From the NCBI GenBank assembly GCA_963828735.1, contig CAWHFW010000004.1:160001-224000 (forward strand): 64,000 nt of DNA, given 5' to 3'. Both the position numbers and the translations under genes were made by a program. The stretch comes from an uncultured Gemmatimonadales bacterium (GTDB lineage: Bacteria > Gemmatimonadota > Gemmatimonadetes > Gemmatimonadales > GWC2-71-9). The notes beneath the pieces were generated by a model. The model made no database searches and had not been told where the DNA came from. It saw only the letters and a program-made list of their open reading frames with translations. The stretch's first letter is position 1. Each line of letters begins with the position of its first letter. Of the stretch, positions 41,812 to 61,164 are shown in pieces.

Positions 41812-43889
41812 GCGCCCGCGTGCAGCGGCTGGTGGACGGGTACGCCCGAGGGCTCGCGCTGGGCGGCGCGGGCGTTGCGTTGCTCTATCTGGCGGTCGAC
41901 CGAGACTGGGCGTCGCGTCCGGTCACCTCGCTCGTCATGGCCCTCGCCGTCTTCGCGCTGCGGGCCTCGCCGGTTCGACTCAGCAAGTATTCCTACCTTA
42001 CGCAGTCCGGCGTGGCGGCGCTCGTGGGCGCGGTGTCCGTCGGGACCGCGCCGGTCGTGCTCGCCCTGTGGCTCGGCGTCTTCACCTCCGACCTGCTCTG
42101 GCTCCGTAAGCTGCCCCGCGCGGGCGTGATCAATGCGGGCCGGGAGGTCCTCGCCTTCGCCGCGGCATACGGGCCCTACGCGGGGGTGCTCGCCCTGACC
42201 GGCCAGCCCGATCTCTCGCTCGATCTGCTGCCGGCCGTCACCATCCTCGTGTGCGGGTACTTCTTCGCGACGCGCGCGCTGTTCTACTTCACCCTCCTCC
42301 TGCGCGACAAGCTCGAGTACGCCGAGAAGATCCTGATCCTCCGGTGGGAAATCATCTCCTACCTGCTCACGGTGATCGCCTCGGTCGTGATCGTCGCCGC
42401 GCTTCGCGGGCTGTCGCCGGTCGGGTGGGTGGCCGTGGCGCTCGCGCTGGGCGTGCTCGGCGTGCTCACCCGGCGGATCCTCGAGGAGGCCATCGGCGCC
42501 GAAGACCTGAACAAGGTGCACCTGATGGAGACGGCGATCGCGAGCAACGCCACGCTGCAGGGCTCCTTCGATCAGATCGAGCGTCTCGCCTATCGGCTGC
42601 TCGACTGGGGCGATTTCCGGATCTACCGGGTCGTCGACGGCACGCCCTCGCTGGCCTATCGCGGCACGCTGGGGCGGCCGAACCGTGGCGAGCCGCCCCA
42701 AGGCGCGGCGCCGCTTCGCGCGCAGGCCATCGCGGAGAACCGGGTCGTCGAGGTGAAGGACGCGGGCTCGGATCCGCGCGTGCCCCTTCCGATGCTGGAG
42801 GTGGGCAGCCTGGTCATCCACCCGATCCGGTTCGGCGAGGAGCTGCTGGGAACGCTCGAGGTGGACCACCCCAAGCGTCATACCTACGGCTCGAAGGATC
42901 TCACGGCGCTCAGCACGCTCGGGACCCAGATCGCGACCGCGATCCACATCGCGGAGCTCCGCCGTCCGCTCCTCGGCACGGTCGAGCAGATCGGCCAGCA
43001 GGTGACCGCGCTGGCCCGGGTGACCGAGTCCCTGCGGGGGTCCGCCCTCGCGCTCGCCGAGGCGTCCCAAGGCATGCGGCAGGGCGTGGGCGAGCTCGAG
43101 TCGTTCGTCGCCGACGGGCTCCGGGCCACCGATTCGCTCGGCGCCGCGTCGCGGGTGATGGCCGACCAGGGTGCCCGGGCCGCGGACGCGAGCGGCACGG
43201 CGGTGGAGGTCGCCGCGCAGAACCGGGCGGTGATCGGCGAGGCGATCAGCCGGCTGGTGGGGCTCAACGCCTTCGTGTCCACGAGCGTGCAGCAGGTGGG
43301 CGCCCTCGGCGCCATGACGAGCCGGATCAAGGGCTTCATCGGCACCATCCGGGAAATCGCCGACCTCACCAATCTGATCGCCCTCAATGCCGCGATCGAA
43401 GCGGCCCGCGCGGGGGCGGAAGGCCGCGGCTTCGCCGTCGTGGCCGACGAAGTGCGCGAACTCGCCGCGCAAAGCCTGCACGCCGCCGGCGAGGCGCGCT
43501 CGCTGCTCGAGGAGATCACGACCCAGGTCGAAGCGGTCTCGGGGGAGATGGCGCGCGGGCGCGAGGCCGTGACGGGCGTGGAGGAGCTGAGCGCCGACGC
43601 GGCGAGCGCGCTCGATGCCATCGTGGGAACGACCGGCGAGGCGGAGAGCCACGCCCGCGCCATCGCCACCACGGCCGCCGAGCAGCTGCGCGCCGTGGAC
43701 GGCTTGACGGGGCAGATCCGTCGCGTCGCCGCGGGATCGGCCCGCACGCTCAGCGAGACCGAGACGCTCGCCCGCCGCGCGGCCGAGACCGCGGCAGGGC
43801 AGGCCGACCTCGAACGCGCCATCCGCGAGCTCGGGGAGGTGGCGTCCGATCTGCAGCGCATCGCGCAGCATTTCGTCGTGGAGACGTAG
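41808..43889 (+). CDS. Methyl-accepting chemotaxis protein with polytopic membrane domain and GAF
   Basis: Several hydrophobic segments; GAF-like [56 protein letters not shown] hairpin. Confidence 0.9.
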
Positions 43890-43890
43890 T

Positions 43891-44313
43891 GTGACGCCTG
43901 CGGTCGAGGCCGCCTACGTGGCGCTCGGCAGCAATCTGGGAGACCGCGCCGGCCACCTCGCGGCCGCGCGTGCCGCCCTCGGCGCCTTGCCGGACACCCG
44001 GCTGGTGGCCGCCTCGACCGTCGAGGAAACCGCGCCGCTGGCCGGAAAAGAGCAGCCGCCGTACCTCAATCAGATGGTGTTGCTCGCGACCGGCCTGGCC
44101 CCCAGGGCGCTGCTCCAGGCATGCCAGGCCATCGAGCGCGCCGAGGGGCGCGTCCGGGCGGAGCACTGGGGGTCGCGCACCCTCGACCTGGACATCGTCC
44201 GCTTCGGCCAGCGGCGCGTGGCGGAGCCCGACCTTATCATTCCCCATCCCGAGCTGGCCAACCGCGACTTCTGGCAGCGAGAGCTGGCGGAGCTCAAGGC
44301 CCATGAACGCTGA
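43891..44313 (+). CDS. folK: HPPK, 6-hydroxymethyl-7,8-dihydropterin pyrophosphokinase
   Basis: ALGSNLG, YLNQ, WGSRTLDLDI, IPHP. Confidence 0.93.
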   Translation: MTPAVEAAYVALGSNLGDRAGHLAAARAALGALPDTRLVAASTVEETAPLAGKEQPPYLNQMVLLATGLAPRALLQACQAIERAEGRVRAEHWGSRTLDLDIVRFGQRRVAEPDLIIPHPELANRDFWQRELAELKAHER

Positions 44314-45115
44314 TGCGCGACCGCTCACGGTGCTCGACCTGCCGGCCATGAAGGCGGCAGGCCGTCGCATCGTGATGCTGACCTGCTACGACGCCGCGTT
44401 CGCGCGCCTGCTCGATCAGGCCGGAGTGGACGTCCTGCTCGTGGGCGACTCGCTCAACCAGGTGATCGCGGGCGAGGAAACGACGCTCAGCGCCAGCCTC
44501 GACCAGATGATCTACCACGCGGCGGCCGTTCGCCGGGGCGCGCCGCGGTCGCTCCTGCTGGTTGACCTCCCCTTCCTCACCTACCAGGTGTCGGTGCCGG
44601 AGGCGATCCGCAACGCGGGCCGCGTGCTGCAGGAGACGGGCGCGCAGGGGGTCAAGCTCGAGGGCGGGCGCCCCATGGTGGAGACCGTGCGCGCGCTGGT
44701 GGAACGGGGCATTCCGGTGCTCGGCCACCTGGGACTGACGCCGCAATCGGTCCACGCGCTCGGCGGGTATCGCGTGCAGGGCCGCGACCATCCCGCAGCC
44801 GAACGGCTGCTCGCCGATGCGAGCGCGCTGGAGGAGGCGGGCGCGTGCGGCGTCGTGCTCGAGCTCGTGCCGACCGCCCTGGCCGAGCGGGTTTCGAAGG
44901 CGCTCGCCATCCCCACCATCGGGATCGGTGCGGGCGCGGGATGCGACGGCCAGGTGCTCGTCCTGCACGACATGCTCGGCCTCAACGAGGGGTTCAATCC
45001 GAAGTTCCTCAAGCGCTACGGTGCGCTGGGTGAAGCGGTCCGCCAGGCGGTTCGGGCCTACGCCGCGGAGGTGCGCGACGGCTCGTATCCCGGCCCCGAG
45101 CACAGCTTCGACTGA
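44303..45115 (+). CDS. panB: 3-methyl-2-oxobutanoate hydroxymethyltransferase
   Basis: LTCYD, LVGDS, VKLEGG, GHLGLTPQ, IGIGAG, DGQVLV. Confidence 0.96.
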   Translation: MNADARPLTVLDLPAMKAAGRRIVMLTCYDAAFARLLDQAGVDVLLVGDSLNQVIAGEETTLSASLDQMIYHAAAVRRGAPRSLLLVDLPFLTYQVSVPEAIRNAGRVLQETGAQGVKLEGGRPMVETVRALVERGIPVLGHLGLTPQSVHALGGYRVQGRDHPAAERLLADASALEEAGACGVVLELVPTALAERVSKALAIPTIGIGAGAGCDGQVLVLHDMLGLNEGFNPKFLKRYGALGEAVRQAVRAYAAEVRDGSYPGPEHSFD

Positions 45116-45140
45116 CCGCGCCGCTGCCCGTCTTCCTCCC

Positions 45141-45998
45141 ATGATCGAGCTCGAGACCATTTCCGACCTGCGCCGCTGGGTCCGAGGCGCGCGCGCGGCG
45201 GACCGCCGCGTCGCCCTGGTGCCGACCATGGGCTACCTCCACGAGGGGCATCTTCGGCTCGTGGACGAGGCCCGTCGTCGGGCCGACGCGGTCGTGATGA
45301 GCGTGTTCGTGAACCCGCTCCAATTCGGGCCCAACGAGGACCTTGCCCGCTATCCGCGCGACCTGCCGCGCGACCGCGCCCTCGCGGAAGCCCGGGGAGT
45401 GGATGCCCTGTTCGTGCCTACCGCGGACGCCATGTACCCCACCGGGTCGGAGATCCGCGTGATCCCGGGTCCCACCGCGGATCGGTGGGAGGGCGCGGCG
45501 CGCCCGGGCCACTTCGCAGGCGTGCTCACCGTCGTGGCCAAGCTGTTCCATCTCGTCGAGCCCGACGTCGCCACCTTCGGGCGGAAGGACATCCAGCAGG
45601 CCGTGCTCGTGCGCCAGATGGTCCACGACCTCGACTGGCGGCTCGACATCGTCGTCGTCCCGACCGTGCGCGAGCCCGACGGGCTGGCGCTCAGCAGCCG
45701 CAATGCCTACCTCGACCCGGCGCAGCGCCGACAGGCCGTCGCCCTCAGCGCGGCCCTCGGCGCGGCGCATGCCGCCTTCACGGCGGGCGAGCGTCGCGCA
45801 TCTGCGGTGGAGGCCGCGATGCGGCGTCGGCTCGACGCGGAGCCGGCCGTGGCGGTCGAGTACCTGGCCATCGCCGAGCCGCGGACGCTCGCGCCCGTCG
45901 ACATGGTCGAGGCGGACACGGTCATCGCGCTCGCCGCCCGGCTCGGACGCACGCGCCTGATCGACAACATCGTTCTGGGCGAGGGCCTCGGCGCATGA
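45141..45998 (+). CDS. panC: Pantoate-beta-alanine ligase
   Basis: VPTMGYLHEGH, FVNPLQF, RPGHF, GLALSSRN, RLIDN. Confidence 0.96.
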   Translation: MIELETISDLRRWVRGARAADRRVALVPTMGYLHEGHLRLVDEARRRADAVVMSVFVNPLQFGPNEDLARYPRDLPRDRALAEARGVDALFVPTADAMYPTGSEIRVIPGPTADRWEGAARPGHFAGVLTVVAKLFHLVEPDVATFGRKDIQQAVLVRQMVHDLDWRLDIVVVPTVREPDGLALSSRNAYLDPAQRRQAVALSAALGAAHAAFTAGERRASAVEAAMRRRLDAEPAVAVEYLAIAEPRTLAPVDMVEADTVIALAARLGRTRLIDNIVLGEGLGA

Positions 45999-46555
45999 CG
46001 GGCGTCGAGCCGGGACTGCCCGCGTGGGCCGTCGCGTCACCCAAGCGCATCGCGCACATTCAGCGCGTCGCCGACCTCGCGGCGGCATGGGCGGCGCGGA
46101 TGCGAGTGACCGGCGCCGAGCGGGCCAGGTGGCTCCGCGCGGTGTGGCTGCACGATGCGCTGCGTGATGCGGACGAGGCGGCCCTCGCCCGGTGGGCGCC
46201 GGACACGCCCGGCTCGCGCTCGCTGCGCCACGGGCCGGCCAGCGCATCGCACGCCGAAGCGGATGGCGAGGCCGATCGCGGCGTGCTCGATGCCGTGCGA
46301 TACCATTCGGTGGGCTTCGCCGGCTGGGACATGGTAGGCCGGGTGCTCTACTGCGCGGACTATCTGGAGCCCGGGCGCGAGTTCGATCGCGAGTGGCGCG
46401 CGGCGCTGGCGGCGCGCTTTCCCGAGGATTCGCCCGCGGTGCTGTCCGAGGTCGCGGCGCGGCGCGTCACCCACGTTGTGCAGACTCGGTGGCCGTTGAT
46501 CGAGCCGACGGTGAGCTTTTGGAACAGTCTCGTCGCGTCGTCCGGGCCGCGCTAG
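45995..46555 (+). CDS. HD-domain protein, YqeK-like (possible Ap4A hydrolase)
   Basis: RIAH, LHD, HG, RYHS, ADYLEPGR. Confidence 0.75.
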   Translation: MTGVEPGLPAWAVASPKRIAHIQRVADLAAAWAARMRVTGAERARWLRAVWLHDALRDADEAALARWAPDTPGSRSLRHGPASASHAEADGEADRGVLDAVRYHSVGFAGWDMVGRVLYCADYLEPGREFDREWRAALAARFPEDSPAVLSEVAARRVTHVVQTRWPLIEPTVSFWNSLVASSGPR

Positions 46556-46944
46556 TCGCGTCGGGCGCGTTCGCGCTGCTCGGCGTGCTGGCGCTGCTGC
46601 TTCAGCCCAGACGCGAGCAGGTGCCCGGCCACGCGTATCCCGTTCCGGCGCCCGGAAAACGCATCCGGGTGGAAGTGCTGAACGGCACGCGGCGTCCGGG
46701 TTTCGCGCGGACGGCGACTCGCGCCCTCCGGGAGCGAGGACTGGACGTCGTCTTCTTCGGGACCGGACCCGCGGCGGATTCCACGCGCATCTTCGTTCGG
46801 CGGGGAGATCCGGGGCAGGGAAAGGACGTGGCGGAAGCGCTCGGCGTCGGACGTGTGGTTCTCCAGCCGGACACGCTCCGCCGAGTGGATGTGAGCGTCC
46901 TGCTGGGAAACGACTGGCGACCGAGGCTGCCGCTGCATCCCTGA
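46519..46944 (+). CDS. Membrane-anchored LytR C-terminal domain protein
   Basis: TM then VEVLNGTRRPGFA...DVSVLLGND; TTG start inferred. Confidence 0.8.
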   Translation: MEQSRRVVRAALVASGAFALLGVLALLLQPRREQVPGHAYPVPAPGKRIRVEVLNGTRRPGFARTATRALRERGLDVVFFGTGPAADSTRIFVRRGDPGQGKDVAEALGVGRVVLQPDTLRRVDVSVLLGNDWRPRLPLHP

Positions 46945-46964
46945 CGCCCCGTCCCTTCGCTCCG

Positions 46965-48305
46965 CTACACCACCCCGATGACGACATCCATCACGTTCGT
47001 CCCCGTCAGCCCCACTCTCAGCAGGGCTCCCGCCGCGTCCAGCGCCCGGTAGGCGTCGTGCGCCGCCAGGTCCCGCTCGGGATCCCGACCCGAGGTCGCC
47101 GCGGCGCGCCAGGTGCCGCCGTCCACGATCGCACCCGCAGCGTCGGTCGGACCGTCGCGACCGTCGGTGCCGGCGGCCATGAGCGCCACGCCCGATCGCG
47201 CGCCGTCCAGCGCCCGGGCCGCCGAGAGTGCCAGCTCCTGGCACCGCCCGCCGAGTCCAGGAGAAGCGTCGCCCAAGGTCACGGTCGTCTCACCGCCCCA
47301 GATGAAGCAGCGGCTCGGCGCGACTGGTTGCGGGATGTTCCGGGGACCGCAATGTTGTAGCAGAAGAGCGGCTACACTCGCGCCTGTCGCCCATGCCTCC
47401 CCGGCGAGCGGCGTCTCAGCCACCTCGGGCGCGAGGCCCAACTCAGCCGCCCGTCTGGCCGCAGCTTCGACGGCCAGTCTGTTACTGGCGATCACTTCGA
47501 GGGTCACGCGCGCGAAGGCCTGATCTCCGGGCTTTGGCGTTTCGGCTGTTTCCCCCGATTCCGACGCCAGCAGGAGCCGTTGGGCGGCCGCCGGAATACG
47601 GGTCCAGAGCCCGGCCTGCTCGAGTTGGCGGTGGACTTCCGCCGCGGTGGTGGGGTCGGGGACGCAGGGGCCGGAGCCGATCGAAGCGAGGTCGTCGCCG
47701 ATGACGTCGGAGACGACGAACACCCGTACCCGCGCCGGCGCGAGCGCCGCGGCGAGCCGTCCGCCGCCCCAGCGCGAAAAGCGCTTGCGGATCCGGTTCA
47801 TGGCGGTGATATCGAGGCCGGATCCGAGGAGGAGACCGTACAACGCGGTCAGCTCCGCCGGCGCGAGTCCGGGGACCGGCGCCGCGAGCAGGCTCGAGGC
47901 GCCGCCGGAGAGCAGCACCCAGACCTCGTCCGGCGACCCGACCCGACTGGTCGCCTGCGCCAATGCTTCCGCCGCGGCGAGCGAGCCCGGCCCGGGCTCG
48001 GGATGATCCCCGCGGATCGTGCGGATGCCGGGATGCGGTGTTGCCTCCGCCGCGGGGGCGACGAGGAGTCCGCCTGCCGGCTCCTGACCCCACGCGCCGA
48101 GGGTCTCGACGGCGGCGCGGGCCATCGGGCCAGCCGCCTTCCCGAGCGCGAAGATCCAGGGGGAGGCAGGGGTGCGGTCGAGGAGGCTCAGCCTCGCCGA
48201 GAGCGCCGGGCCGGGATCAACCGCCCGGGTGGCAACCGTGTAGAGCTCGGTGAGGAGCTCCCGTGGGGACAAATCCGAGTGGGAACGAGCGGCGGACGCG
48301 GGCAA
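46965..48305 (-). CDS. gck: Glycerate 2-kinase (class II, MOFRL/TtuD family)
   Basis: ALGKAA, HPEP, LSGGASSL, SDVIGDD, IGSGP, GGETTV, GGRCQE, GTDGRDG, TGTNVMD. Confidence 0.9.
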   Translation of the reverse strand: MPASAARSHSDLSPRELLTELYTVATRAVDPGPALSARLSLLDRTPASPWIFALGKAAGPMARAAVETLGAWGQEPAGGLLVAPAAEATPHPGIRTIRGDHPEPGPGSLAAAEALAQATSRVGSPDEVWVLLSGGASSLLAAPVPGLAPAELTALYGLLLGSGLDITAMNRIRKRFSRWGGGRLAAALAPARVRVFVVSDVIGDDLASIGSGPCVPDPTTAAEVHRQLEQAGLWTRIPAAAQRLLLASESGETAETPKPGDQAFARVTLEVIASNRLAVEAAARRAAELGLAPEVAETPLAGEAWATGASVAALLLQHCGPRNIPQPVAPSRCFIWGGETTVTLGDASPGLGGRCQELALSAARALDGARSGVALMAAGTDGRDGPTDAAGAIVDGGTWRAAATSGRDPERDLAAHDAYRALDAAGALLRVGLTGTNVMDVVIGVV

Positions 48306-48315
48306 GATCGCAGCC

Positions 48316-48368
48316 TTGTGAAAAAAAGCACAAAGTGCTATACATGGGCTGACGCATAAAAATTCAGC
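48316..48368 (+). promoter_or_regulatory. Putative promoter/operator region of the divergent gck / sga cluster
   Basis: AT-rich island; TTGTGA-N17-TATACA; palindromes AGCAC-AAA-GTGCT (48327-48339) and GCTGA-N11-TCAGC (48348-48368). Confidence 0.5.
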
Positions 48369-48461
48369 GGGCAGTATGAGCTTCAGCGCCTGCTAATGTA
48401 CTCTGATCAGGCGGGGGCGTCGCGCCTCCGCCGGGGCTTCCTTCCTCCTGAGGGCTCGCGC

Positions 48462-49724
48462 ATGGCCGGCCGCAACTTCCTCCTCGTTCCGGGGCCTACG
48501 AACACGCCCGACCGTATCCTCCGCGCCATGCATGTCGCGATGGAGGACCACCGGTCGTCCGACTTCCCCAAGCTCGCCGCCCCGGTGCTCGAGAACCTGA
48601 AGAAGATCTTCAAGACGTCGACGGGGCAGCCCTACATTTTCCCCGCCAGCGGCACGGGCGCGTGGGAGGCGTCGCTGTCGAACACGCTGAGCCCCGGCGA
48701 CCGCGTCCTCGCGGCCCGGTTCGGCATGTTCAGCCACCTCTGGATCGACATGGCCCAGCGGCTGGGCCTCAAGGTGGACGTGCTCGACACCGAGTGGGGC
48801 GAGGGCGCCCCGGTCGAGCGGTATCACGAGGCGCTCGCCGCCGACAAGAACCACGAGATCAAGGCCGTACTGTTCACCCACAACGAGACGGCCACCGGAG
48901 TCACCAGCGACGTGGCCGGGATGCGCAAGGCGCTCGACGACGCGAAGCATCCCGCGCTCCTCATGGTGGACGGCGTGAGCTCGATCGCGAGCATCGACTT
49001 CCGGATGGACGAGTGGGGCGTCGACTGCGCCGTCACCGGTTCCCAGAAGGGCCTAATGCTTCCGGCCGGCCTCGGCATCGTGTGCGTGAGCCAGAAGGCT
49101 GCGGCGCAGTACGAGAAGGCCAGGCTGCCGCGGGTCTTCTTCGATTTCGGCGACATGAAGAAGGCGAACGCGACGGGGTACTTCCCGTACACGCCGTCGC
49201 TTCCGATGCTGTACGGCCTCCGCGAGTCGCTCGCGGTCCTGTTCGAGGAAGGGCTCGAGAACGTCTTCGCCCGGCATCACCGGCTCGCCGAGGGCACCCG
49301 TGCCGCCGTGAAGGCCTGGGGGCTCGAGCTCTGCGCCCGCGAGCCGCGGTGGCACTCGGACACGGTGAGCGCGATCATGGTGCCGCCCGGCATCAACGGC
49401 GCCGAGGTCATCGACGTGGCCTACCGCCGCTACAATCTGGCGCTCGGCGCGGGTCTCGCGCGGATGGCGGGGCGGCTCTTCCGCATCGGCCACCTCGGCG
49501 ATTTGAACGAGTGCATGCTCCTCGGCGGCCTCGCCGGCGCGGAGATGGCGATGCGCGACGTGGGCATCAAGGTGACGCCCGGGAGCGGGGTGGCCGCGGC
49601 CGAGGAATACTGGCGCGGCACGGCGAAGCCGCTCGAGCAGCGGGAGCTTCCGCCGCGCGCCCCCGATGCCCAGCCCGCGGCCCCGACGGCGAAGGAGAAG
49701 GCGACCGCCGGCGTCGCTCGATGA
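48462..49724 (+). CDS. sgaA: Serine-glyoxylate aminotransferase
   Basis: GRNFLLVPGPTN, EDHRS, SGTGAWE, HNETATGV, VDGVSS, GSQKG, FRIGHLG. Confidence 0.9.
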   Translation: MAGRNFLLVPGPTNTPDRILRAMHVAMEDHRSSDFPKLAAPVLENLKKIFKTSTGQPYIFPASGTGAWEASLSNTLSPGDRVLAARFGMFSHLWIDMAQRLGLKVDVLDTEWGEGAPVERYHEALAADKNHEIKAVLFTHNETATGVTSDVAGMRKALDDAKHPALLMVDGVSSIASIDFRMDEWGVDCAVTGSQKGLMLPAGLGIVCVSQKAAAQYEKARLPRVFFDFGDMKKANATGYFPYTPSLPMLYGLRESLAVLFEEGLENVFARHHRLAEGTRAAVKAWGLELCAREPRWHSDTVSAIMVPPGINGAEVIDVAYRRYNLALGAGLARMAGRLFRIGHLGDLNECMLLGGLAGAEMAMRDVGIKVTPGSGVAAAEEYWRGTAKPLEQRELPPRAPDAQPAAPTAKEKATAGVAR

Positions 49725-50659
49725 GCCACACCCGCGTCGAGCCCGCCCGTCAGCGGCTGCAGCGCAGCGAGCTGGCCGTGCCCGGATCGAGTCCGGGCAT
49801 GTTCGCGAAGGCGCTCGACAGCGCCGCCGACTACATCTTCCTCGATCTCGAGGACGCGGTGGCGCCGGGGGACAAGGAGTCCGCGCGGACCAACGTGATC
49901 CGCGCGCTGCAGGAGCACGAGTGGCGCGGTCGCGGCAAGACGATCTCGGTGCGGATCAACGGCATCGACACCCACTACATGTATCGCGACGTGGTGGACG
50001 TCGTGGAGCAGGCCGGCCATCGGCTCGACACGATCCTGATTCCCAAGGTGGGCGTTCCCGCGGACGTCTACCTCGTGGACGCGCTGCTGACGCAGATCGA
50101 GCAGGCGAAGGGCATCCCCCACCGCATCGGCATCGACGTGTTGATCGAGACCGCGCTCGGCATGGCCAACGTCGAGGCGATCGCGCAGTCCAGCCGGCGG
50201 CTCGAGGCCATGCACTTCGGGGTCGCCGACTACTCGGCGAGCTGTCGCGCGCGCACCGTGGTGATCGGCGGCCTCAACCCCGACTACCCGGGTGATCAGT
50301 GGCACGCCGCGCTCTCGCGGATGATCGTCGCCTGCCGCGCCTACGGCCTTCGCCCCATTGACGGGCCCTTCGGCGACTTCAAGGATCCGGATGGCTATCG
50401 GCTCGCCGCGAAGCGCGCCGCGGCGCTCGGCATCGAGGGAAAGTGGGCCATCCATCCCTCGCAGATCGCGCTGGCCAACGAGGTGTTCAGCCCTCCGCCG
50501 GCCGAGGTGGATCGGGCGAAACGCATCCTGGTCGCGCTCGACGAGGCCGCGCGGGACGGGCGCGGCGCGGCGCAGCTCGACGGGCGGATGATCGACGCCG
50601 CCTCCGCGCGGATGGCGCAGAACATCGTTCACATGCACGAGGCCATCGAGAAGGCCTGA
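49721..50659 (+). CDS. mcl: L-malyl-CoA lyase (CitE superfamily)
   Basis: [58 protein letters not shown]. Confidence 0.88.
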
Positions 50660-50693
50660 CCGCGACTCCGACCCACGACTCGAGATCGCCACC

Positions 50694-51887
50694 ATGGACA
50701 TCCACGAATACCAGGCCAAGGAGCTGCTCGCAGGTTTCGGCGTGGCCATCCCGCGTGGCGGGGTGGCCTACAGTCCGGAACAGGCGGTCTACCGCGCGTC
50801 GGAGATCGGCGGCACTCGCTGGGCCGTGAAGGCGCAGATCCATTCGGGCGCCCGCGGCAAGGCGGGCGGGATCAAGCTCTGCTCCAACGAGGACGAGGTC
50901 CGGCAGGCCGCGAAGGGCCTGCTCGGCAAGCGACTGGTGACCCACCAGACCGGTCCCGAGGGTCGCACGGTCCACCGTCTCTACGTCGAGGCGGCGGTGC
51001 CGATCGACCGCGAGATCTATCTGGGGTTCGTGCTGGACCGGAAGAGCGAGCGGGTGATGATCGTCGCCTCGGCGCAGGGCGGGATGGAGATCGAGGAGAT
51101 CTCCGAGCGCTCGCCGGACGCGATCATCCGCTCGGTGGTCGAGCCTGCGGTGGGCCTCACCGCCTTCCAGGCGCGGGAGATCGCCTTCGCCCTCGGCCTC
51201 GATTCCGCCCAGGTGACCCGCGCCGTGACCACCTTGCTCGGCTGCTACCGGGCGTTCCGCGACCTCGACGCGACCATGGTGGAGATCAACCCGCTCGTGG
51301 CCACGACGGACGGCCAGCTCTTCGCGCTCGACTGCAAGATGACGTTCGACGACAACGCGCTGTTCCGGCGGCCGAACGTGAGCGAGCTGCGCGACTACGC
51401 CGAGGAGGATCCGCGGGAGTCCCAGGCCGCCGAGTACGGGATCAATTACGTCGCGCTCGACGGCGAGATCGGCTGCATCGTGAACGGCGCGGGCCTCGCG
51501 ATGGGCACGATGGACCTGATCAAGCACGCCGGCAGCTCGCCGGCCAACTTCCTCGACGTAGGCGGCGGCGCCTCGCCGGAGAAGGTGTGCAATGCCTTTC
51601 GTCTGGTGCTCGCGGATCCGAAGGTCAAGGCGATCCTCGTGAACATCTTCGCCGGGATCAACCGCTGCGACTGGGTGGCCCAGGGCGTGGTCTATGCCGT
51701 GAAGGAGCTCAAGCCCGCCGTGCCCCTGGTGGTGCGGCTCGCGGGCACGAACGTCGAGGAGGGCCGCAAGATCCTGAAGGACAGCGGCCTCGACCTGGTC
51801 ACCGCGGATACCCTTACCGAGGCGGCCGAGAAGGTCGTCGCCGCCCTCAAGGCCTCGGGCAGCACGGCCGGAAACGGAAAGCCATGA
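50694..51887 (+). CDS. mtkA: Malate-CoA ligase (malate thiokinase) large subunit
   Basis: [47 protein letters not shown] (MtkA-like rather than SucC NIFGGI.RCD); gene context. Confidence 0.85.
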
Positions 51888-52795
51888 GCATCCTGATCGA
51901 CGAACGGACGCGCGTGATCATCCAGGGCTTCACGGGCGACAAGGGCTCCTTCCACGGCAAGGAGATGGCCGCGTACGGCACCAACCTGGTGGGCGGCGTC
52001 ACGCCAGGGAAGGGCGGCAAGCGGCACCTCGACCGGCCGGTCTTCAACACCGTCAAGGAAGCGGTCCGCGAGGCCGGCGCCGAGGCGACCATCATCTTCG
52101 TACCGGCCGCGTTCTGCGCGGACTCGATCATGGAAGCGGCCGACGCCGGCGTCCGGCTGATCTGCGCCATCACCGACGGGATCCCGGCGCAGGACATGAT
52201 GATGGTGAAGCGGTATCTGTGGCGATATCCCAAGGAGAGGCGCTCGACGGCGATCGGCCCCAACTGCGCCGGCATCATCAGTCCGGGCAAGGCCATGCTC
52301 GGCATCATGCCGGGCCACATCTACAAGCGCGGCACGGTGGGTCTGGTGACGCGATCCGGCACGCTGGGCTACGAGGCCGCGTCGCAGATGAAGGCGGTCG
52401 GTATCGGCATCTCGACCAGCGTCGGCATCGGCGGCGATCCGATCAACGGCAGCTCGTTCGTGGACATCCTGCAGCGCTTCGAGGAGGATCCCGAGACCGA
52501 GGCCGTCATGATGATCGGGGAGATCGGCGGCCCCCAGGAGGCGGAGGCAGCCCGGTTCGCGAAGGCGAACATGAAGAAGCCGGTCATCGGGTACGTGGCC
52601 GGCCTGACCGCGCCGAAGGGCCGCCGCATGGGACACGCGGGCGCCATCATCCGCGCCTTCGGGGAGAGCGCGGCCGAGAAGGTGGAGATCATGAAGGAGG
52701 CGGGGCTCACGGTGGTCCACAGCCCGGCCGACCTCGGCGCCACGACCGCGACGGTGCTGGGCGGGCTGTCCAAGCGCGTGGCGGTCGCGACGTGA
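51884..52795 (+). CDS. mtkB: Malate-CoA ligase small subunit (SucD family)
   Basis: [43 protein letters not shown]. Confidence 0.85.
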
Positions 52796-53766
52796 GCGGG
52801 CGGCCGGTGATCGTCGTGACCCGCCGGCTGCCGGAGCCGGTGCACCAGGCGCTCACGCGCGAGTTCGACGCGCGGCTCAACGAGGACGACCGCCCGCTCT
52901 CGTCCGACGGCCTCCGCGACGCGCTCGCCACCGCCGACGCCCTGCTCACCACGGTGACGGACAAGGTGACCGAAGAGGTGCTCGCCGTGGAGCCGCGGCG
53001 CGCCAAGCTGGTGGCCAACTTCGGCGTGGGCTTCAACAACATCGACGTCGAGGCCGCGAAGGCCCGAGGCGTCGCCGTCTCGAATACGCCCGACGTCCTG
53101 ACGGATGCCACGGCGGACCTCGCCATGACCCTTCTGCTCATGGTGGCGCGCCGCACGGGGGAAGGCGAGCGCCACCTGCGGGGCGGGCAGTGGACCGGCT
53201 GGCGTCCGACCCACATGCTCGGGACCCAGGTGACCGGGAAGACGCTGGGCCTCGTCGGCATGGGGCGGATCGCGCGCGCGGTGGCGCAGCGCGCCCACCA
53301 CGGCTTCAAAATGAAAGTGATCTATCACGATCCGTTTCCGCCGCCGGCCGACGTGGCCAGCGCCCTCGGCGCCGAGCCGCGCGAGACGCTGGACGACGTG
53401 CTGCGCGAGGCGGACTTCGTCTCGCTCCATTGCCCGGCGCTACCGGAGACGCGGCACCTGATGAACCGGGATCGACTTGCCCGCATGCAGCCGCACGCGT
53501 TCCTCGTGAACACCGCCCGCGGCGACGTGGTGGACGAGGCCGCCCTGGTCGAAGCGCTCGCGTCGAAGCGGATCGCGGGCGCGGGCCTCGACGTGTACGA
53601 ACGCGAGCCGCAGGTGACGCAGGCGCTCACGACCATGGACAACGTCGTGCTCCTCCCCCACCTCGGCAGCGCCACCACCGAAACGCGCGTGGCGATGGGC
53701 ATGCGCGCCGTCGAGAACCTCCAGCTCTTCTTCAGCGGCAAGCCCCTCCGCGATCGCGTCGTGTGA
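52792..53766 (+). CDS. D-glycerate dehydrogenase / hydroxypyruvate-glyoxylate reductase (GyaR-like)
   Basis: NTPDVLT, GMGRIA, SLHCP, NTARG, GLDVYE, LPHLGSAT. Confidence 0.88.
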   Translation: MSGRPVIVVTRRLPEPVHQALTREFDARLNEDDRPLSSDGLRDALATADALLTTVTDKVTEEVLAVEPRRAKLVANFGVGFNNIDVEAAKARGVAVSNTPDVLTDATADLAMTLLLMVARRTGEGERHLRGGQWTGWRPTHMLGTQVTGKTLGLVGMGRIARAVAQRAHHGFKMKVIYHDPFPPPADVASALGAEPRETLDDVLREADFVSLHCPALPETRHLMNRDRLARMQPHAFLVNTARGDVVDEAALVEALASKRIAGAGLDVYEREPQVTQALTTMDNVVLLPHLGSATTETRVAMGMRAVENLQLFFSGKPLRDRVV

Positions 53767-56534
53767 CCCCGGTGGTGCTCGAGCCGTTCGTCGCCGGGAT
53801 CGAGCTGCCCGAGTCGCCCGACCCGGTAGCGGCGAGCGCCGCGCACTATGCCAACGGGGTCGTTGACCTCCTGAGCGATTTGATGCTGCGACTGGTCCGG
53901 CAGCGCGCGCCCGACGTCGAGCCGGTGCTGCGGGGTCAGAAGGCGCCACACGAGCTGAGCGCCGAGCTGCTGGCCCGGACGCTCCAGGTGCAGGGAATCT
54001 GGTTCCAGCTCCTGAGCATCGCCGAGCAGAACGCGGCCATGCGGCGCCGCCGGCAGACCGAGGCCGAGCGCGGCTACGAGCTGGTCCGCGGGACGTTTGC
54101 GCAGGTCTTCTCGTCCGCGGTCGAGGCCAAGGTGCCGGCGGCCGACATTCGAGGGCTGCTCGAACGGCTCCGGGTCCGGCCGGTCATCACCGCGCATCCC
54201 ACCGAAGCCAAGCGCGTCACCGTCCTGGAGAAGCACCGGCGCATCTACCGCCGCCTCGTGGATCTCGAGTCCCCGCGCTGGACGCCGCGCGAGCGCCAAT
54301 CGCTGATCGACGGGCTCCGGAACGAAATCGAGCTGCTGTGGCTCACGGGAGAGCTGCGCCTCTCGAAGCCGACCGTGCCGCAGGAAGTGTTCTGGGGCCT
54401 GCACTTCTTCAACGAGACGTTGTTCGAGGCGGTGCCGGACCTGCTCGACAAGGTCGAGCGCACGCTGGCCCAGCACTATCCCGACGAGCGCTGGGTGGTC
54501 CCGCCGTTCTTCCAGTTCGGCTCCTGGATCGGCGGCGACCGCGACGGCAATCCCTTCGTCACCAACGACGTCACGCAGAGCACTCTGCTCGAGAACCGGC
54601 TCACGTCGCTCCGGCGATACCGGCGTCGGATCGATGAGCTGGTGCGCGCGCTCAGCATCACGGAGAAGGCCGTCCCGATCTCCGACCGGTTTCGGCGGGC
54701 TCTCGAGAAGGAGCTGGCCGAGACCGGGCGCGCGGAGGAGGTCGCGGCGCGGAATCCCGGGGAGGTCTTCCGGCAGTACCTGGGCTGCATGCTGGGCCGG
54801 ATCCAGGTCATGATCGAGCGGACGGAGCAGGGCTCCACCAAGCCCGACCCGGCCGGCTACGCCACGGCAGACGCCTTGCTCGCGGACCTCAAGCTGCTCG
54901 AGGACGAGCTGGGCCTTGCCGGCCGGCCCGAGATCGCACGGGCGCTGCTCACGCCGGTGCGACGCGAAGTGGAGTCGTTCCGGTTCAGCACCGTGCGGCT
55001 CGACGTGCGCGAGAACACAACCAAGCTGGGCGCCGCCCTGCGCGATCTCTGGCGGCTCGCTAACGGCGGCGACCCGCCCGAGGCCGGCTCCGAGGCGTGG
55101 CGGGCCTGGGTCGCCGCGGAGCTGGCGCGTCCGCTGGCTCCCGGCGCTCTCGCGCCGGCGCTCCCCGAAGCGACCGCGGAGACGCTAGGCATGTTTCAGC
55201 TCGTGCGACGGCTCCGCGACGAGATCGACCGTGAGGCCTTCGGCGCCTTCGTGCTCAGCATGACACAGAGCGTGAGCGACGTGCTCGGCGCGTACCTGCT
55301 GGCGAAGGTCAGTGGGTTGTTCGCCGACGCGCCCGGCGTGGAGAGCTGCACCCTGCCCATCGTGCCCCTGTTCGAGACGATCGACGATCTGCAGCGCGCT
55401 CCGACCATCATGCGAGACCTGCTGACGGTGCCATTGGTCAAGCGGAGCGTGCGGGCCCAGGGCGGCGTGCAAGAGGTGATGATCGGCTACTCCGACTCGA
55501 ACAAGGACGGCGGGTTCCTCACCTCGAACTGGGAGCTGTACAAGGCGCAGACCAAGCTGACCCGGGTCGGGAAGGAGTGCGGCGTGCCGATCGCCTTCTT
55601 CCACGGGCGGGGCGGCTCGGTGAGTCGCGGCGGCGCGCCGACGGGGCGCGCGATCGCGGCCCAGCCTGCGGGCTCGATCCGGGGACGCATGCGGATCACC
55701 GAGCAGGGCGAGGTGGTCTCGTTCAAGTACGCCAACCGCGGCACCGCCCAGTATCAGATCGAGCTGTTGGCCTCGAGCGTCGTCGAACATTCGCTCAAGT
55801 CCGAGCGGGAAGAGGCCCTCGCCCCCACGGCGGAATTCGACGAGGCGATGGAGGCCTTGAGCGGCGCGGCTCAGGCGGCGTATCGGCGCCTGGTGGACCA
55901 CCCCGATCTCCTGCCGTATTACCAGTCGGCGAGCCCGCTCGAAGAGATCTCGCTCCTCAATCTCGGCTCACGCCCCGCGAGGCGCTTCGGCGCGCGCTCC
56001 CTGGGTGATCTCCGCGCGATCCCCTGGGTGTTCGCCTGGTCCCAGAATCGCCACTTCGTGCCGGGATGGTACGGGGTCGGGAGCGGCATCCTCACGTTTC
56101 TGCAGGTGCGCGGGCAACGGGGCGCCGCGCTGATCCAGCGCATGTCCACCGAGTCGCGGCTGTTTCGTTTGATCGCGGATGAGGTCGAGAAGACGCTGTG
56201 CTACGTGGATCTCGAAACAGCCAGGGAGTACGCCGCGCTGGTGCCGGACGAGCGCGCGCGCGACGCGATCTTCCCGATGATCGAGGAGGAGTACCATCGG
56301 ACCGTCGAGGCGGTGCTTCGGATCAGCGGCGGTCCGGAGCTGGCGCACCGGTTTCCCCGCTTCCGTCGCAAGCTGGCCCGACGTCTCCCGACCCTGAACC
56401 AGATCTCCCGGCAGCAGATCGAGCTGCTCCGGCGCTTCCGGGAAACGGGCGGGGACACGTCCCAGGAGGAACTGCTCTCGGCGCTACTCCTGTCCATCAA
56501 CTGCATCGCGGCGGGGTTCGGGGCGACAGGGTAA
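53763..56534 (+). CDS. ppc: Phosphoenolpyruvate carboxylase (bacterial/plant type)
   Basis: TAHPTE, SWIGGDRDGNP, VPLFET, MIGYSDSNKDGG, FHGRGGSVSRGG, LRAIPWVFAWSQ. Confidence 0.95.
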   Translation: MTPVVLEPFVAGIELPESPDPVAASAAHYANGVVDLLSDLMLRLVRQRAPDVEPVLRGQKAPHELSAELLARTLQVQGIWFQLLSIAEQNAAMRRRRQTEAERGYELVRGTFAQVFSSAVEAKVPAADIRGLLERLRVRPVITAHPTEAKRVTVLEKHRRIYRRLVDLESPRWTPRERQSLIDGLRNEIELLWLTGELRLSKPTVPQEVFWGLHFFNETLFEAVPDLLDKVERTLAQHYPDERWVVPPFFQFGSWIGGDRDGNPFVTNDVTQSTLLENRLTSLRRYRRRIDELVRALSITEKAVPISDRFRRALEKELAETGRAEEVAARNPGEVFRQYLGCMLGRIQVMIERTEQGSTKPDPAGYATADALLADLKLLEDELGLAGRPEIARALLTPVRREVESFRFSTVRLDVRENTTKLGAALRDLWRLANGGDPPEAGSEAWRAWVAAELARPLAPGALAPALPEATAETLGMFQLVRRLRDEIDREAFGAFVLSMTQSVSDVLGAYLLAKVSGLFADAPGVESCTLPIVPLFETIDDLQRAPTIMRDLLTVPLVKRSVRAQGGVQEVMIGYSDSNKDGGFLTSNWELYKAQTKLTRVGKECGVPIAFFHGRGGSVSRGGAPTGRAIAAQPAGSIRGRMRITEQGEVVSFKYANRGTAQYQIELLASSVVEHSLKSEREEALAPTAEFDEAMEALSGAAQAAYRRLVDHPDLLPYYQSASPLEEISLLNLGSRPARRFGARSLGDLRAIPWVFAWSQNRHFVPGWYGVGSGILTFLQVRGQRGAALIQRMSTESRLFRLIADEVEKTLCYVDLETAREYAALVPDERARDAIFPMIEEEYHRTVEAVLRISGGPELAHRFPRFRRKLARRLPTLNQISRQQIELLRRFRETGGDTSQEELLSALLLSINCIAAGFGATG

Positions 56535-56566
56535 GACGGCGGAACCGCTGGGGCCAGCCTCAACGA

Positions 56567-56599
56567 GAAGGGGCCATGCGTGCGACGCATGGCCCCTTC
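56567..56599. terminator. Hairpin between convergent ppc and rlmN
   Basis: 15-bp perfect inverted repeat GAAGGGGCCATGCGT-gcg-ACGCATGGCCCCTTC. Confidence 0.75.
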
Positions 56600-56644
56600 G
56601 CTTCGCTCGGCCGGGCTCACTTCCCGGCGACGCTCGGCACGCGT

Positions 56645-57736
56645 CTACTCGGGCTGACCGACCCCGGCCGCCGCTTGGCGCTTCCGCTCCGTCGCCACCC
56701 GGAGCTGCCCGCACGCGGCATCGATGTCGAGCCCGCGACTCCTTCGCACCGTGGCCTCGACGCCTTGGTTGCGCAGGCGGCCCGCGAAGGCGCGGATGCG
56801 GTCGGGGCCCGTGGGCGTCAGGTCCGGTGCGCCGCCAGGATGGAGCGGAAGGATGTTAACCAGCGCTCCGAGGCCCCGGGCGAGCTTGGCGAGCCGGTCG
56901 GCATCGGCGTCGCGATCGTTGACCCCGCCGATCATCACGTATTCGAAGGTCACCCGCTTCCTGAACGCCCCCGCGGCGCGGAGCACGGCCGCGAGGTCGT
57001 ATTTCTTCTCGATCGGCATGATGCCCAGCCGCTGCGGCGACGTGGTCGCATGCAGCGAGATGGCGAGGCGGAACTGCTCGGGACGCCGGGCGAAGGCCTC
57101 GAGCCCCGGCAGGATCCCCACGGTCGAGACCGTGATGTGGCGAGCACCGATCCCGAGGCCGTCGGGAGAGTTGAGGATCGTGAGCGCCGTGTCCACCGCG
57201 GGCCAGTTGAGCAGGGGCTCGCCCATGCCCATGAAGACGACATTGGTCGGCACGTCGTCCGGATTCCTGAGCACGATCTCGCGCACCTGTCCCACGATCT
57301 CGAACGCGGAGAGGTTGCGCCGAAAGCCCATCCGACCCGTCGCGCAGAACGAGCAGCGCAGCGCGCAGCCCGCCTGTGACGAGATGCAAAGCGTCCGTCG
57401 CGATCCTGAGGGAATGAGCACCGATTCGATCGCCTCGCCGTCCGCGAGCCGCCAGAGGAACTTTCGGGTGCCGTCCTCCGAGAGCTGCTCCACCTCCGCG
57501 GTCAGTCGGCCCAGCGGAAAGGCACGCTCCAGTTCGTCGCGAAGCGCGAGGGGCAGGTCGGTGGCCTCACGCCACGTACTGACCGGCGCCTGCCACAGAC
57601 GGCGGAAGATCTGGCTCACCCGGTAGGCCGGCAGGCCCTTGCCTCGGACCCAGGCGGCCAGGTCCCCGCGGGCGGCGGCCGGCGGCCGGTCGAGGAGATC
57701 TGGCGCCGGAGAAGATGGCTGAGAGGCGATGCTCAT
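56645..57736 (-). CDS. rlmN: 23S rRNA A2503/tRNA A37 C2-methyltransferase
   Basis: CISSQAGCALRCSFCATG, VFMGMGEP, AISLH, IDAACGQL. Confidence 0.95.
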   Translation of the reverse strand: MSIASQPSSPAPDLLDRPPAAARGDLAAWVRGKGLPAYRVSQIFRRLWQAPVSTWREATDLPLALRDELERAFPLGRLTAEVEQLSEDGTRKFLWRLADGEAIESVLIPSGSRRTLCISSQAGCALRCSFCATGRMGFRRNLSAFEIVGQVREIVLRNPDDVPTNVVFMGMGEPLLNWPAVDTALTILNSPDGLGIGARHITVSTVGILPGLEAFARRPEQFRLAISLHATTSPQRLGIMPIEKKYDLAAVLRAAGAFRKRVTFEYVMIGGVNDRDADADRLAKLARGLGALVNILPLHPGGAPDLTPTGPDRIRAFAGRLRNQGVEATVRRSRGLDIDAACGQLRVATERKRQAAAGVGQPE

Positions 57737-57892
57737 CGTGTTGAAAACTAACATCATAGCCGGCCGACGTGTGGCTCCGTCCGAACCGGGACGCCAAGGC
57801 CGAGCGGGCCCGGCGCCCCGCCGGAGAACCACCCCGCGGGATCCCCGTGGACACCCCTGCGCAAGGAGCCTAACTCCCGTTCATTCCTCGCA

Positions 57893-57921
57893 TTGCTCCC
57901 CCTCTGGCCGCCGGTTACGTT
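57893..57921 (+). promoter_or_regulatory. Putative sigma70 promoter for EIIA-aspS operon
   Basis: TTGCTC-N17-TACGTT 26 nt upstream of the start codon. Confidence 0.35.
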
Positions 57922-57947
57922 TGTCCAATGCACCGCCTAGCCGTGCT

Positions 57948-58403
57948 GTGCTCCTGACCGAGTTGCTCTCGCCGGACCGGGTGGTGGTGCCGCTGCTGGC
58001 CGATGACAGGCAGACAGCCATCGCAACGCTCACGCGCAAGCTCGCCGAGCTGGCGGGCGCCGGGTATGACGAGGTGCTGGACGCGGTGCTCGAGCGCGAG
58101 TCCGTCCAGAGCACCGGTATAGGCTTCGGCGTCGCCATTCCGCACGGTCGGTGCGCCGCGGTCCGCGAGCTCACCATGGTGGCCGGGGTGAGTCCCGCGC
58201 CCGTGCCGTTCGACGCGATCGACGGGGAGCCGGTGCGGCTGTTCTTCCTCATCGTCGGCCCCGAGGCATCCGCCGGGCTGCACGTCAAGATCCTGAGTCG
58301 AATCGCCCGCCTGGTCCGCCGAGATACGGTGCGCCAGCAACTGGTCGAGGCCACCACCGCCGATGCGTTCTACAACGTCATCCTCGACGCCGAAGCGCGT
58401 TGA
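57948..58403 (+). CDS. Second stand-alone PTS EIIA
   Basis: RESVQSTGIGFGVAIPHG, FDAIDGEPV, HVKILSRIAR. Confidence 0.9.
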   Translation: MLLTELLSPDRVVVPLLADDRQTAIATLTRKLAELAGAGYDEVLDAVLERESVQSTGIGFGVAIPHGRCAAVRELTMVAGVSPAPVPFDAIDGEPVRLFFLIVGPEASAGLHVKILSRIARLVRRDTVRQQLVEATTADAFYNVILDAEAR

Positions 58404-58437
58404 CCACATCTCCTTTCCGCGTCCATTGGCCGGTAGC

Positions 58438-60207
<1,770 letters not shown>

Positions 60208-60210
60208 CCC

Positions 60211-61164
60211 ATGGCAGACGACAGTCACCATCGCCTATCGGCCGAAGGCGCCGATCCGCTCCTCTTCGCGGGCGTCAACGACGCGAACCTGCTCGAGCTC
60301 CAACGGAGCCTCGGGGTCCGCGTGTCGTTCCGCGGGGATGCCGTCACCCTGACCGGCACGACCGAGCAGCTGGAGCGGGCCACGCCCGTCGTGCAAGGGT
60401 TGCTGGACCTCGCCCGGATGGGCGAGCCGGTGTCGCCCGACGACGTCGCCCGCCTCGCGGCGGAGGGACCTCCGGGCGAGCTCCCGGCCCAGCCCAGCGA
60501 CGGGAAGATCGTGCTGCCGGGCCTTCGCCGGGCCATCGTGCCGAAGACGCAGGGCCAGCGCGACTACCTGCAGGCGATCAGCAATCACGACATCGTGGTC
60601 GGGATCGGCCCAGCGGGCACGGGCAAGACGTACCTTGCCGTCGCCAAGGCGATCGAGGCCCTCGCGCGGAAGCGCGTGAAGCGGATCATCCTGGCCCGGC
60701 CCGCGGTCGAGGCCGGCGAATCGCTCGGCTTCCTGCCGGGAGATCTGCAGGCCAAGGTGGATCCCTACCTGCGGCCCCTGTACGACGCGCTGGAAGACAT
60801 GATGCCGCATGACCGGGTGCAGCGGGCGCTCGAGACGCGAACCATCGAGATCGCACCGTTGGCGTACATGCGCGGCCGCACGCTCGCCGACGCCTTCATC
60901 ATTCTCGACGAGGCGCAGAACGCCACCGGCGCGCAGATGAAGATGTTCCTCACCCGGCTCGGCGTGAACAGCAAGACCGTCGTGACCGGCGACAAGACGC
61001 AGATCGATCTGCCCAAGCGCGAGGACTCGGGCCTGGTGCAGGTGGAGCGGGTGCTGCCGGGCATCGAAGGAATCGCCTTCTGCTACCTGCACGAGGCCGA
61101 CGTGGTGCGGCACCGCCTCGTGCGCGAGATCATCAAGGCCTATGCGGAGGATCAGATCGGTTGA
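60211..61164 (+). CDS. PhoH-family ATPase
   Basis: [33 protein letters not shown]. Confidence 0.95.

Follow-up and report, generated by a model that had tools for sequence, protein, structure and literature searches.

Introduction

In Methylobacterium and Methylorubrum, the serine cycle is encoded in the order sga-hprA-mtdA-fch-mtkAB-ppc-mcl, is regulated by QscR and is accompanied by the ethylmalonyl-CoA pathway. The system considered here is a set of seven genes at positions 46965-56534 of a stretch of 64,000 nucleotides (the window; C4:160001-224000, contig CAWHFW010000004.1) in the genome of an uncultured Gemmatimonadales bacterium (GCA_963828735.1), which would form the core of such a cycle: gck and, divergent from it, the run sga-mcl-mtkA-mtkB-hpr-ppc. 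Coordinates with a C prefix refer to contigs of this genome, and all others to the window. Further arrangements of these genes have been described, including type I and II clusters such as ‘sga-mcl-mtkBA(-hpr)(-ppc)’, and control by SecR has been shown in Aminobacter (PMC13199381). In Methylocella silvestris, whose icl+ cycle has no ethylmalonyl-CoA pathway, isocitrate lyase (ICL), but not malate synthase, is needed for growth on one-carbon (C1) compounds (PMC7364539). As regards the phylum itself, XoxF systems have been reported in it (PMC10875860), and XoxF, tetrahydromethanopterin (H4MPT) genes and a malate-route serine pathway were described for soil Gemmatimonadetes in 2016, according to a figure legend (Fig. 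4) and the supplement of that study, in which a Gemmatimonadetes XoxF was the most abundant protein of one soil proteome (PMC5103831).

The first-pass annotation of this DNA, made from its letters alone, regarded the trait as proposed for the phylum and perhaps not wholly new; that it is known stands, and the 2016 report shows that this was an understatement (PMC5103831). The soil Gemmatimonadetes of that study share with the present genome XoxF with H4MPT genes immediately upstream, pqq genes, a tetrahydrofolate (THF) route and a ‘canonical malate-intermediated’ serine pathway, and malate-CoA ligase and malyl-CoA lyase are listed in its supplement. In its text, ICL is treated for Rokubacteria and not for Gemmatimonadetes and no operon map is given, while its supplementary files, two of them excepted, have no match for ‘Rex’ (PMC5103831). 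Compared with the Aminobacter plasmid (sga-mcl-mtkA-mtkB-hpr-gck), the order sga-mcl-mtk beta-mtk alpha-hpr(-ppc), the reductase type (56% identity) and the MOFRL kinase family are shared, with 75% identity in Mcl and 68-70% in Mtk; unlike in Aminobacter, there is no secR-like gene beside sga, gck is a divergent neighbour, a Rex-type box is found instead, and the C1 source appears to be methanol, with no gmaS found. The single operon with a GyaR-type reductase, which had been called notable, loses that status, since the same type occurs on the Aminobacter plasmid, the cluster type is published (PMC13199381) and the six-gene order recurs in many uncultured Gammaproteobacteria, where folD or mtd often accompanies it. 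With respect to Methylobacterium and Methylorubrum, Sga, MtkAB, Ppc and Mcl are 60-72% identical and both H4MPT-linked oxidation and entry through FtfL are shared, whereas the gene order and the reductase (33%) differ, FolD is present and ccr is missing. Finally, glyoxylate supply by ICL and the lack of an ethylmalonyl-CoA pathway are common to Methylocella silvestris and this genome (PMC7364539), but the lyase here is short (370 aa) and divergent, has an RTCGH loop, and its activity is predicted.

The core of the system is thus not new, with pathway, phylum and gene order already in print. The reading that we consider likely is that the seven genes serve a serine cycle assimilating methanol-derived C1 units, that glyoxylate is regenerated by the divergent lyase, and that operon and lyase are jointly derepressed when the NADH sensor Rex releases its operators. 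The divergent lyase and the Rex boxes would be the additions not found in print, as a modest and testable variant.

The serine cycle locus and its enzymes

All seven open reading frames are open and none is interrupted, and family scans bore out the enzyme names that they had been given. On the minus strand, gck (46965-48305, with an uncertain start at the TTG of 48305 or 48272) encodes a MOFRL/DUF4147-type glycerate 2-kinase, both families being called. On the plus strand follow sga (48462-49724; serine-glyoxylate aminotransferase, class V and pyridoxal phosphate-dependent), mcl (49721-50659; malyl-CoA lyase, HpcH/CitE family), mtkA (50694-51887) and mtkB (51884-52795) for the beta and alpha subunits of malate-CoA ligase (malate thiokinase), hpr (52792-53766; hydroxypyruvate (glyoxylate) reductase of the GyaR/GHPR type) and ppc (53763-56534), the sole phosphoenolpyruvate (PEP) carboxylase gene found in the genome. 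The adjacency and the prevalence of 4-nt overlaps noted at first reading were confirmed: of the five junctions in the sga-ppc run, four overlap in this way (ATGA, ATGA, GTGA and GTGA), and a gap of 34 nt separates mcl from mtkA.

MtkA reaches 700.9 bits on the NCBIfam malate-CoA ligase beta model PRK14046 (cut-off 604), on which the genome's own SucC, 46% identical to MtkA and encoded on another contig, obtains 392; in a tree rooted on SucC, MtkA stands among the Mtk proteins, beside the Methylobacterium and Paraburkholderia copies. Likewise, MtkB is 72% identical to the Methylobacterium copy and 51% to its own SucD, and succinyl-CoA synthetase has separate genes (sucCD, C1:76585-78593), so that MtkAB would be a malate thiokinase distinct from that enzyme. 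Mcl matches the malyl-CoA lyase structure 5ugr (418 bits), which we take to be that of the M. extorquens enzyme, and 4l9y (312), ahead of CitE-like entries (at most 114), and its 167 bits on the CitE model fall under the cut-off of 443, which points to a malyl-CoA lyase of the methylotroph type and not to CitE.

The other four genes are present by homology and context, with Hpr, Gck and Ppc under their own NCBIfam cut-offs. The best structural match of Sga is the serine-glyoxylate aminotransferase 6pk1 (E 1.6e-145), and it shares 64% identity with the serine-cluster copy of Methylobacterium and 69% with that of Paraburkholderia. Hpr finds its best model in the glyoxylate reductase PRK13243 (314 bits, cut-off 455) and is 51-56% identical to reductases of the Aminobacter/Paracoccus type. 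An acidic residue after the second Rossmann strand goes with a preference for NADH, and the one present in Hpr (YHDP) suggests such a preference. Ppc, at 781 bits, narrowly misses the NCBIfam threshold of 815 (Pfam 823), and it shares 60% identity with the Methylobacterium cluster copy.

The cluster is flanked by folK-panB-panC-HD-lytR_C on one side and by rlmN, a phosphotransferase system IIA gene and aspS on the other, and the GC content of the region (~0.70) equals that of the flanks; at third codon positions it is 0.90-0.94 in the six plus-strand genes and 0.83 in gck. A scan of 46500-57000 for sigma-70 promoters passed no site, and a terminator scan of the same interval gave three terminator-like matches, equal to chance. 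Between 6 and 11% of the operon words were present in each of 11 soil metatranscriptome runs; four of these, over 41001-61000, gave short contigs on operon and flanks alike, conserved stretches having attracted other organisms. Between trpA and folK, a membrane protein (41808-43889) with a GAF-like region and a methyl-accepting-like C-terminus was named by sequence reading.

Probable route of glyoxylate regeneration

The sole ICL-family gene of the genome, at C5:56015-57127, encodes a protein of 370 aa with ~31% identity to E. coli AceA. In E. coli numbering, it keeps the ICL residues Y89, S91, G92, W93, D157, E159, H184, E186, C195, H197 and R232, as well as W287, E289, N317, S319, S321, F349 and T351, together with the N-x-S-P-S motif; W287, F349 and T351, positions where E. 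coli PrpB differs, are presumably those that set ICL-type specificity. In its structure model (mean predicted local distance difference test score, pLDDT, 88.5), isocitrate lyases are the best match, with template modelling (TM) scores up to 0.84. The protein probably works like an ICL, and it is not filed as a canonical AceA because it has neither the KKCGH loop nor a score above the cut-offs.

Matches to this divergent form at 78-96% identity occur in 34 of 36 same-genus genomes, and those listed in a homologue search were all relatives at 87% identity or more. Across the 37 family genomes with mtkA, 32 have an ICL-family gene: the divergent form in 21 and a distant match in 11 (six were fetched, all of them KKCGH AceA, as were all 12 weak lyase matches fetched). 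The two lyase types do not strictly exclude each other, since a second, distant match is present in two of the 36 same-genus genomes, though no genome had both in another comparison. Malate synthase accompanies the divergent lyase in 19 of 28 genomes, which suggests that the latter is a working ICL in them. By analogy with the ICL requirement of Methylocella, glyoxylate is probably regenerated by the divergent lyase in an icl+ cycle. As for the searches proposed in the first-pass annotation, xoxF, pqq, glyA, ftfL, folD and sucCD were found, ccr was not, and aceA appeared only in this divergent form.

Predicted control by Rex

The operator of Rex has the consensus TTGTGAAN4TTCACAA (PMC2883068, PMC5355995), its targets verified in Streptomyces include rex, atp and nuo (PMC5355995), and sites with 1-3 mismatches still bind in Streptomyces avermitilis or Staphylococcus aureus (PMC5355995, PMC2883068). 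A conserved element fitting this operator lies in the gap between gck and sga: the predicted site TTGTGAA-N4-GCACAA (48316-48333), with two mismatches, 146 nt before sga. The genome encodes a rex gene (C4:31410-32030), above the NCBIfam cut-offs and with an operator box of its own, which is also present before rex in relatives. Genome-wide, three perfect sites, one with one mismatch and four with two were found, where base composition predicts 0.001, 0.03 and 1.0. Moreover, a matrix built only from the lyase boxes of relatives ranks as its top seven genome sites those of rex, the lyase, atpA, a cupredoxin-like gene, the F0 atp operon, sga and nuoA, all at 17.4 bits or more, the next site scoring 13.6 (the atp, nuo and cupredoxin-like names were assigned by sequence reading). 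The operator and the boxes at rex, atp and nuo are features shared with the regulons that Rex controls in Streptomyces avermitilis and Staphylococcus aureus (PMC5355995, PMC2883068), and the operon and the lyase are predicted to be under Rex as well. A C1 assimilation operon or an ICL as a Rex target was not found in the open-access literature searched, nor was any description of Rex control of a serine cycle or of an RTCGH lyase (subscription papers were mostly not covered).

The conservation of both boxes delimits this prediction. Before sga, the box is perfect in five of 18 same-genus loci, has two mismatches in ten and four in three, and a pattern fitted to it occurs in 79 of the 103 genomes of the genus, the reversed pattern in none of them, its position having been checked only in fetched loci; the predicted Rex control of the operon would be at most genus-wide. 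Of 43 loci, 37 keep the lyase box with no more than one mismatch. The remaining six belong to one genome with the C1 module (G082) and to five lacking mtkA and mch, and the latter keep the boxes at the cupredoxin-like gene (5/5) and at rex (3/5). That cupredoxin-like gene (C5:253378-253698) has a perfect Rex-type box at C5:253896, which most of the relatives checked retain whether or not they have C1 genes. In other genera (L134, L137, L139, L140, L141, L146 and L152), a different conserved, hairpin-like motif (TTCGCGCGAGAGCCCGGAGCTCTCGC and variants) stands just before sga, in place of the Rex box.

C1 oxidation and the proposed route

Outside the window, the genome holds a XoxF-type methanol dehydrogenase gene (xoxF, C5:2263670-2265553) with xoxJ and xoxG, upstream of which lie ~25 kb of H4MPT genes (fae, mtd, fhcBADC, mch and pterin/furan biosynthesis). 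The best structural matches of XoxF are 4mae and the XoxF entries 6oc5 and 6dam, and the aspartate of WDYDG, the motif read here, is retained; the lanthanide role of XoxF is stated in PMC5103831. Also present are pqqA-E, gcvP/H/T, gltA (citrate synthase), acnA (aconitase), sdh, fumC and aceK, together with ftfL (867 on its model, cut-off 652) and glyA, eno, mdh and folD, with 57%, 58%, 31% and 52% identity to E. coli, respectively. Two formate dehydrogenases are encoded, one of the FdnG type with an in-frame TGA and one an Fdh-alpha/NuoF-like set beside fdhD. A formate dehydrogenase alpha gene (C5:2560826-2564182, L347) has an in-frame TGA at the usual selenocysteine position, and a tRNA-Sec lies at C2:68777-68874, near ftfL.

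Five further pyrroloquinoline quinone (PQQ) dehydrogenases are found, at C5:523879-525792, C2:973353-975110, C5:2527669-2529270, C2:901689-903194 and C4:75387-77120; the first retains a WDYDD motif and adjoins xoxJ-like, cytochrome and NRAMP-like genes, a neighbourhood resembling the XoxF3 systems as described in PMC10875860.

Regarding other C1 sources, pmoA was found in none of 45 Gemmatimonadota genomes including this one, the same search being positive in 5 of 18 proteobacterial genomes (soluble methane monooxygenase was not searched), and gmaS was above the cut-off in none of 28 Gemmatimonadota genomes, with four of four proteobacterial controls passing (mauAB was not searched). The best ccr score in the genome is 114.5 (cut-off 378.55), with none of 49 relatives above the cut-off, and malate synthase was not found in this genome. 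Methanol is thus the likely C1 source, rather than methylamine via gmaS or methane via pmoA. Of the C1 assimilation through a serine cycle originally proposed from methanol, methylamine or formate, the methanol part gained support from xoxF-J-G, the H4MPT cluster, ftfL, folD and the formate dehydrogenases, and methylamine via gmaS did not. The two findings named at the outset as fatal to that proposal did not turn up either: MtkA lies with the Mtk proteins beside a separate sucCD, and genes for C1 oxidation and activation are present in the genome.

Put together, XoxF (with XoxJ, XoxG and pqq products) would oxidise methanol, Fae, Mtd, Mch and Fhc would take formaldehyde to formate, and formate would either be oxidised by the two formate dehydrogenases or be converted by FtfL and FolD into methylene-THF, from which GlyA would make serine with glycine. 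Sga would then turn serine into hydroxypyruvate, with glycine formed, Hpr would reduce it to glycerate with NADH, Gck would phosphorylate this with ATP to 2-phosphoglycerate, and Eno would yield PEP, to which Ppc would add bicarbonate to give oxaloacetate, reduced by Mdh (NADH) to malate. MtkAB would activate malate with ATP to malyl-CoA, to be split by Mcl into glyoxylate and acetyl-CoA; the latter, via citrate synthase and aconitase, would give isocitrate, from which the divergent lyase would release a second glyoxylate and succinate (the icl+ variant, with no ethylmalonyl-CoA route). As C1 oxidation raises the NADH/NAD+ ratio, Rex would come off its operators, and this would jointly derepress the NADH-consuming cycle, the lyase and the NADH dehydrogenase and ATP synthase operons.

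Distribution and origin

Of 151 genomes of the family, 37 carry mtkA, 40 carry mch and 38 carry the xoxF orthologue (at least 71% identity, a threshold placed at a gap reaching down to 56%). Among the 37 with mtkA, 35 have mch and 33 the xoxF orthologue; among the 114 without it, the same five carry both, and three of these are 68-80% complete. Over 401 genomes of the phylum, mtkA occurs in 75 from two families: 66 of 166 of its own family (plus this genome), 8 of 93 of a second one, all eight retaining sga-mcl-mtkAB-hpr, and none of 141 others. In one relative, lytR_C directly adjoins rlmN, as an empty site. Two genomes without mtkA and mch, G114 (L366) and G130 (L367), have only gck and hpr at the cluster site beside rlmN, this pair being either left over from a deletion or ancestral to the insertion.

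The genome (4.78 Mb) is 97.5% complete and 5.17% contaminated. Despite this contamination, the cluster is native and neither chance nor a chimeric block, because order, flanks and host-like GC are conserved: gene order and flanks are the same in 20 of 20 same-genus loci, as far as contigs extend, mcl is present in 33 of 36 same-genus genomes, and gck is 66-81% identical among these relatives. The phylum guessed at first reading was right, the 17 best-ranked named relatives of mcl being all titled Gemmatimonadales, Gemmatimonadaceae or Gemmatimonadota. Nativeness was checked because a stretch of C2 appears foreign; this stretch (C2 ~25000-48000) and another at C1 ~178600-186000 contain actinobacterial-looking genes (a second folD, serA and gatB) and are likely contaminant blocks inside contigs. 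Transfer-messenger RNAs (tmRNAs) are found at C4:172777 and C5:2756475, a second copy being likewise a likely sign of contaminant blocks.

The trees were quick LG+G4 ones supported only by SH-aLRT, an approximate likelihood ratio test of the Shimodaira-Hasegawa kind, built after dropping 19, 32 and 42 redundant locus ids; the combined Mcl, MtkA and MtkB tree is unrooted, and the outgroups of the other trees form long branches. In it, the 33 Gemmatimonadota rows make one branch (SH-aLRT 99). The nearest outsider differs between trees (Methylobacterium and Paraburkholderia for MtkA, one gammaproteobacterial record for Mcl with MtkAB), so no donor or direction of transfer is claimed. The mcl-mtkA-mtkB genes of an Actinobacteria-titled record (L220) are nested inside the Gemmatimonadales branch, which would reflect either a transfer out of the order or a mis-binned contig. 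A gammaproteobacterial genome with pmoA (L224, G552) holds the full sga-mcl-mtkA-mtkB-hpr-ppc run with a GyaR-type reductase, as do L255 (G566) and L236 (G559). The USC-gamma methanotrophs are said to be without hpr (PMC13333085), and a GyaR-type hpr may escape annotation.

Counter-evidence and alternative explanations

A number of observations weigh against a methanol-fed serine cycle under Rex. The flux steps are predicted from the known pathway and from genes read in this genome, and the distribution counts are descriptive, the genomes being kin and not independent. Four of the 37 mtkA genomes have no xoxF orthologue, and five have no ICL-family match, four of which are 92-100% complete. 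The lyase itself reaches 167 bits on the AceA models, with cut-offs of 562 and 276, and has RTCGH instead of KKCGH in 46 of 46 loci covering the loop. As for Rex, the sga box has its two mismatches here and four in three of the 18 same-genus loci, is missing from all 19 loci of other genera as well as all eight from the sister family, and conservation of its left half might reflect a -35 element; G082 has the C1 module and no lyase box; and xoxF has no Rex box here (best, seven mismatches), with only 2 of 30 loci at three mismatches. In addition, fhcA, fhcB, pqqC and fumC have frame breaks, probably assembly errors, because rpoB is broken too and a frame change with respect to a close relative affects 9 of 116 control genes.

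Could the cassette then be mainly an NADH sink, or a means of co-assimilation in mixed growth, with methanol as an energy supplement, no growth on it alone, and C1 units coming equally from formate, glycine or methylated compounds? This is unlikely, while differing from the preferred explanation in degree only. It fits with the Rex boxes, which place the operon with respiratory genes and not with xoxF, with the glycine cleavage genes gcvP/H/T, and with the mcl-mtk cassettes without adjacent sga in Pelagibacteraceae and Acidimicrobiales records; however, mtkA closely co-occurs with mch and the xoxF orthologue, and the ICL-family gene in 32 of the 37 genomes would allow net growth.

Somewhat less probable still is that Mcl and MtkAB work backwards in place of malate synthase (acetyl-CoA and glyoxylate to malyl-CoA and then malate), cluster and lyase forming a modified glyoxylate shunt for acetate while Sga, Hpr and Gck salvage glyoxylate or serine. 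Malate synthase is indeed not found here nor in 16 of the 37 mtkA genomes, and acetyl-CoA-synthetase-like genes, aceK, gcl and glcDEF are present. Nonetheless, 21 of the 37 keep malate synthase, and it would be left unexplained why ppc, sga, hpr and gck share a unit and why there is a link to mch and xoxF; a reverse shunt might be an additional use, not the principal one.

It is very improbable that the aminotransferase is BhcA and the genes belong to a beta-hydroxyaspartate cycle for glyoxylate assimilation. On the BhcA model (cut-off 650) Sga does obtain 621 bits, and it shares 60% identity with an annotated BhcA, but it is nearer to the serine-cluster copies (64-71%), and model scores in the genome reveal no bhcB, bhcC or bhcD beside it, the best look-alikes scoring 258/550, 143/690 and 162/500 and lying elsewhere, which largely refutes this option. 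Lastly, a contaminant or recent proteobacterial insert in a mixed assembly, as the 5.17% contamination and the 56-82% identity to proteobacterial cassettes might suggest, has next to no chance, being refuted by the identical site and order in all 20 same-genus loci, the spread of mcl, the host-like GC and the single branch of the Gemmatimonadales copies.

Implications

The operon itself adds little beyond the published pathway, phylum and gene order. The question that it helps to address is a different one: do Gemmatimonadetes cells assimilate methanol, or do they merely burn it? The divergent lyase would be the probable missing step for this, the regeneration of glyoxylate, and mtkA and mch offer themselves as markers for the methylotrophic part of the order. 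A broader proposition, to which we give even chances, is that in an abundant soil genus Rex takes the place of a C1-specific activator (QscR, SecR) over the serine cycle, and that an undescribed short RTCGH ICL closes this cycle, the Rex control of this lyase being kept in methylotrophic lineages and missing where there are no C1 genes. If that were true, the fixation of carbon from methanol and CO2 would work as a redox valve that opens at any surplus of electrons, low oxygen included.

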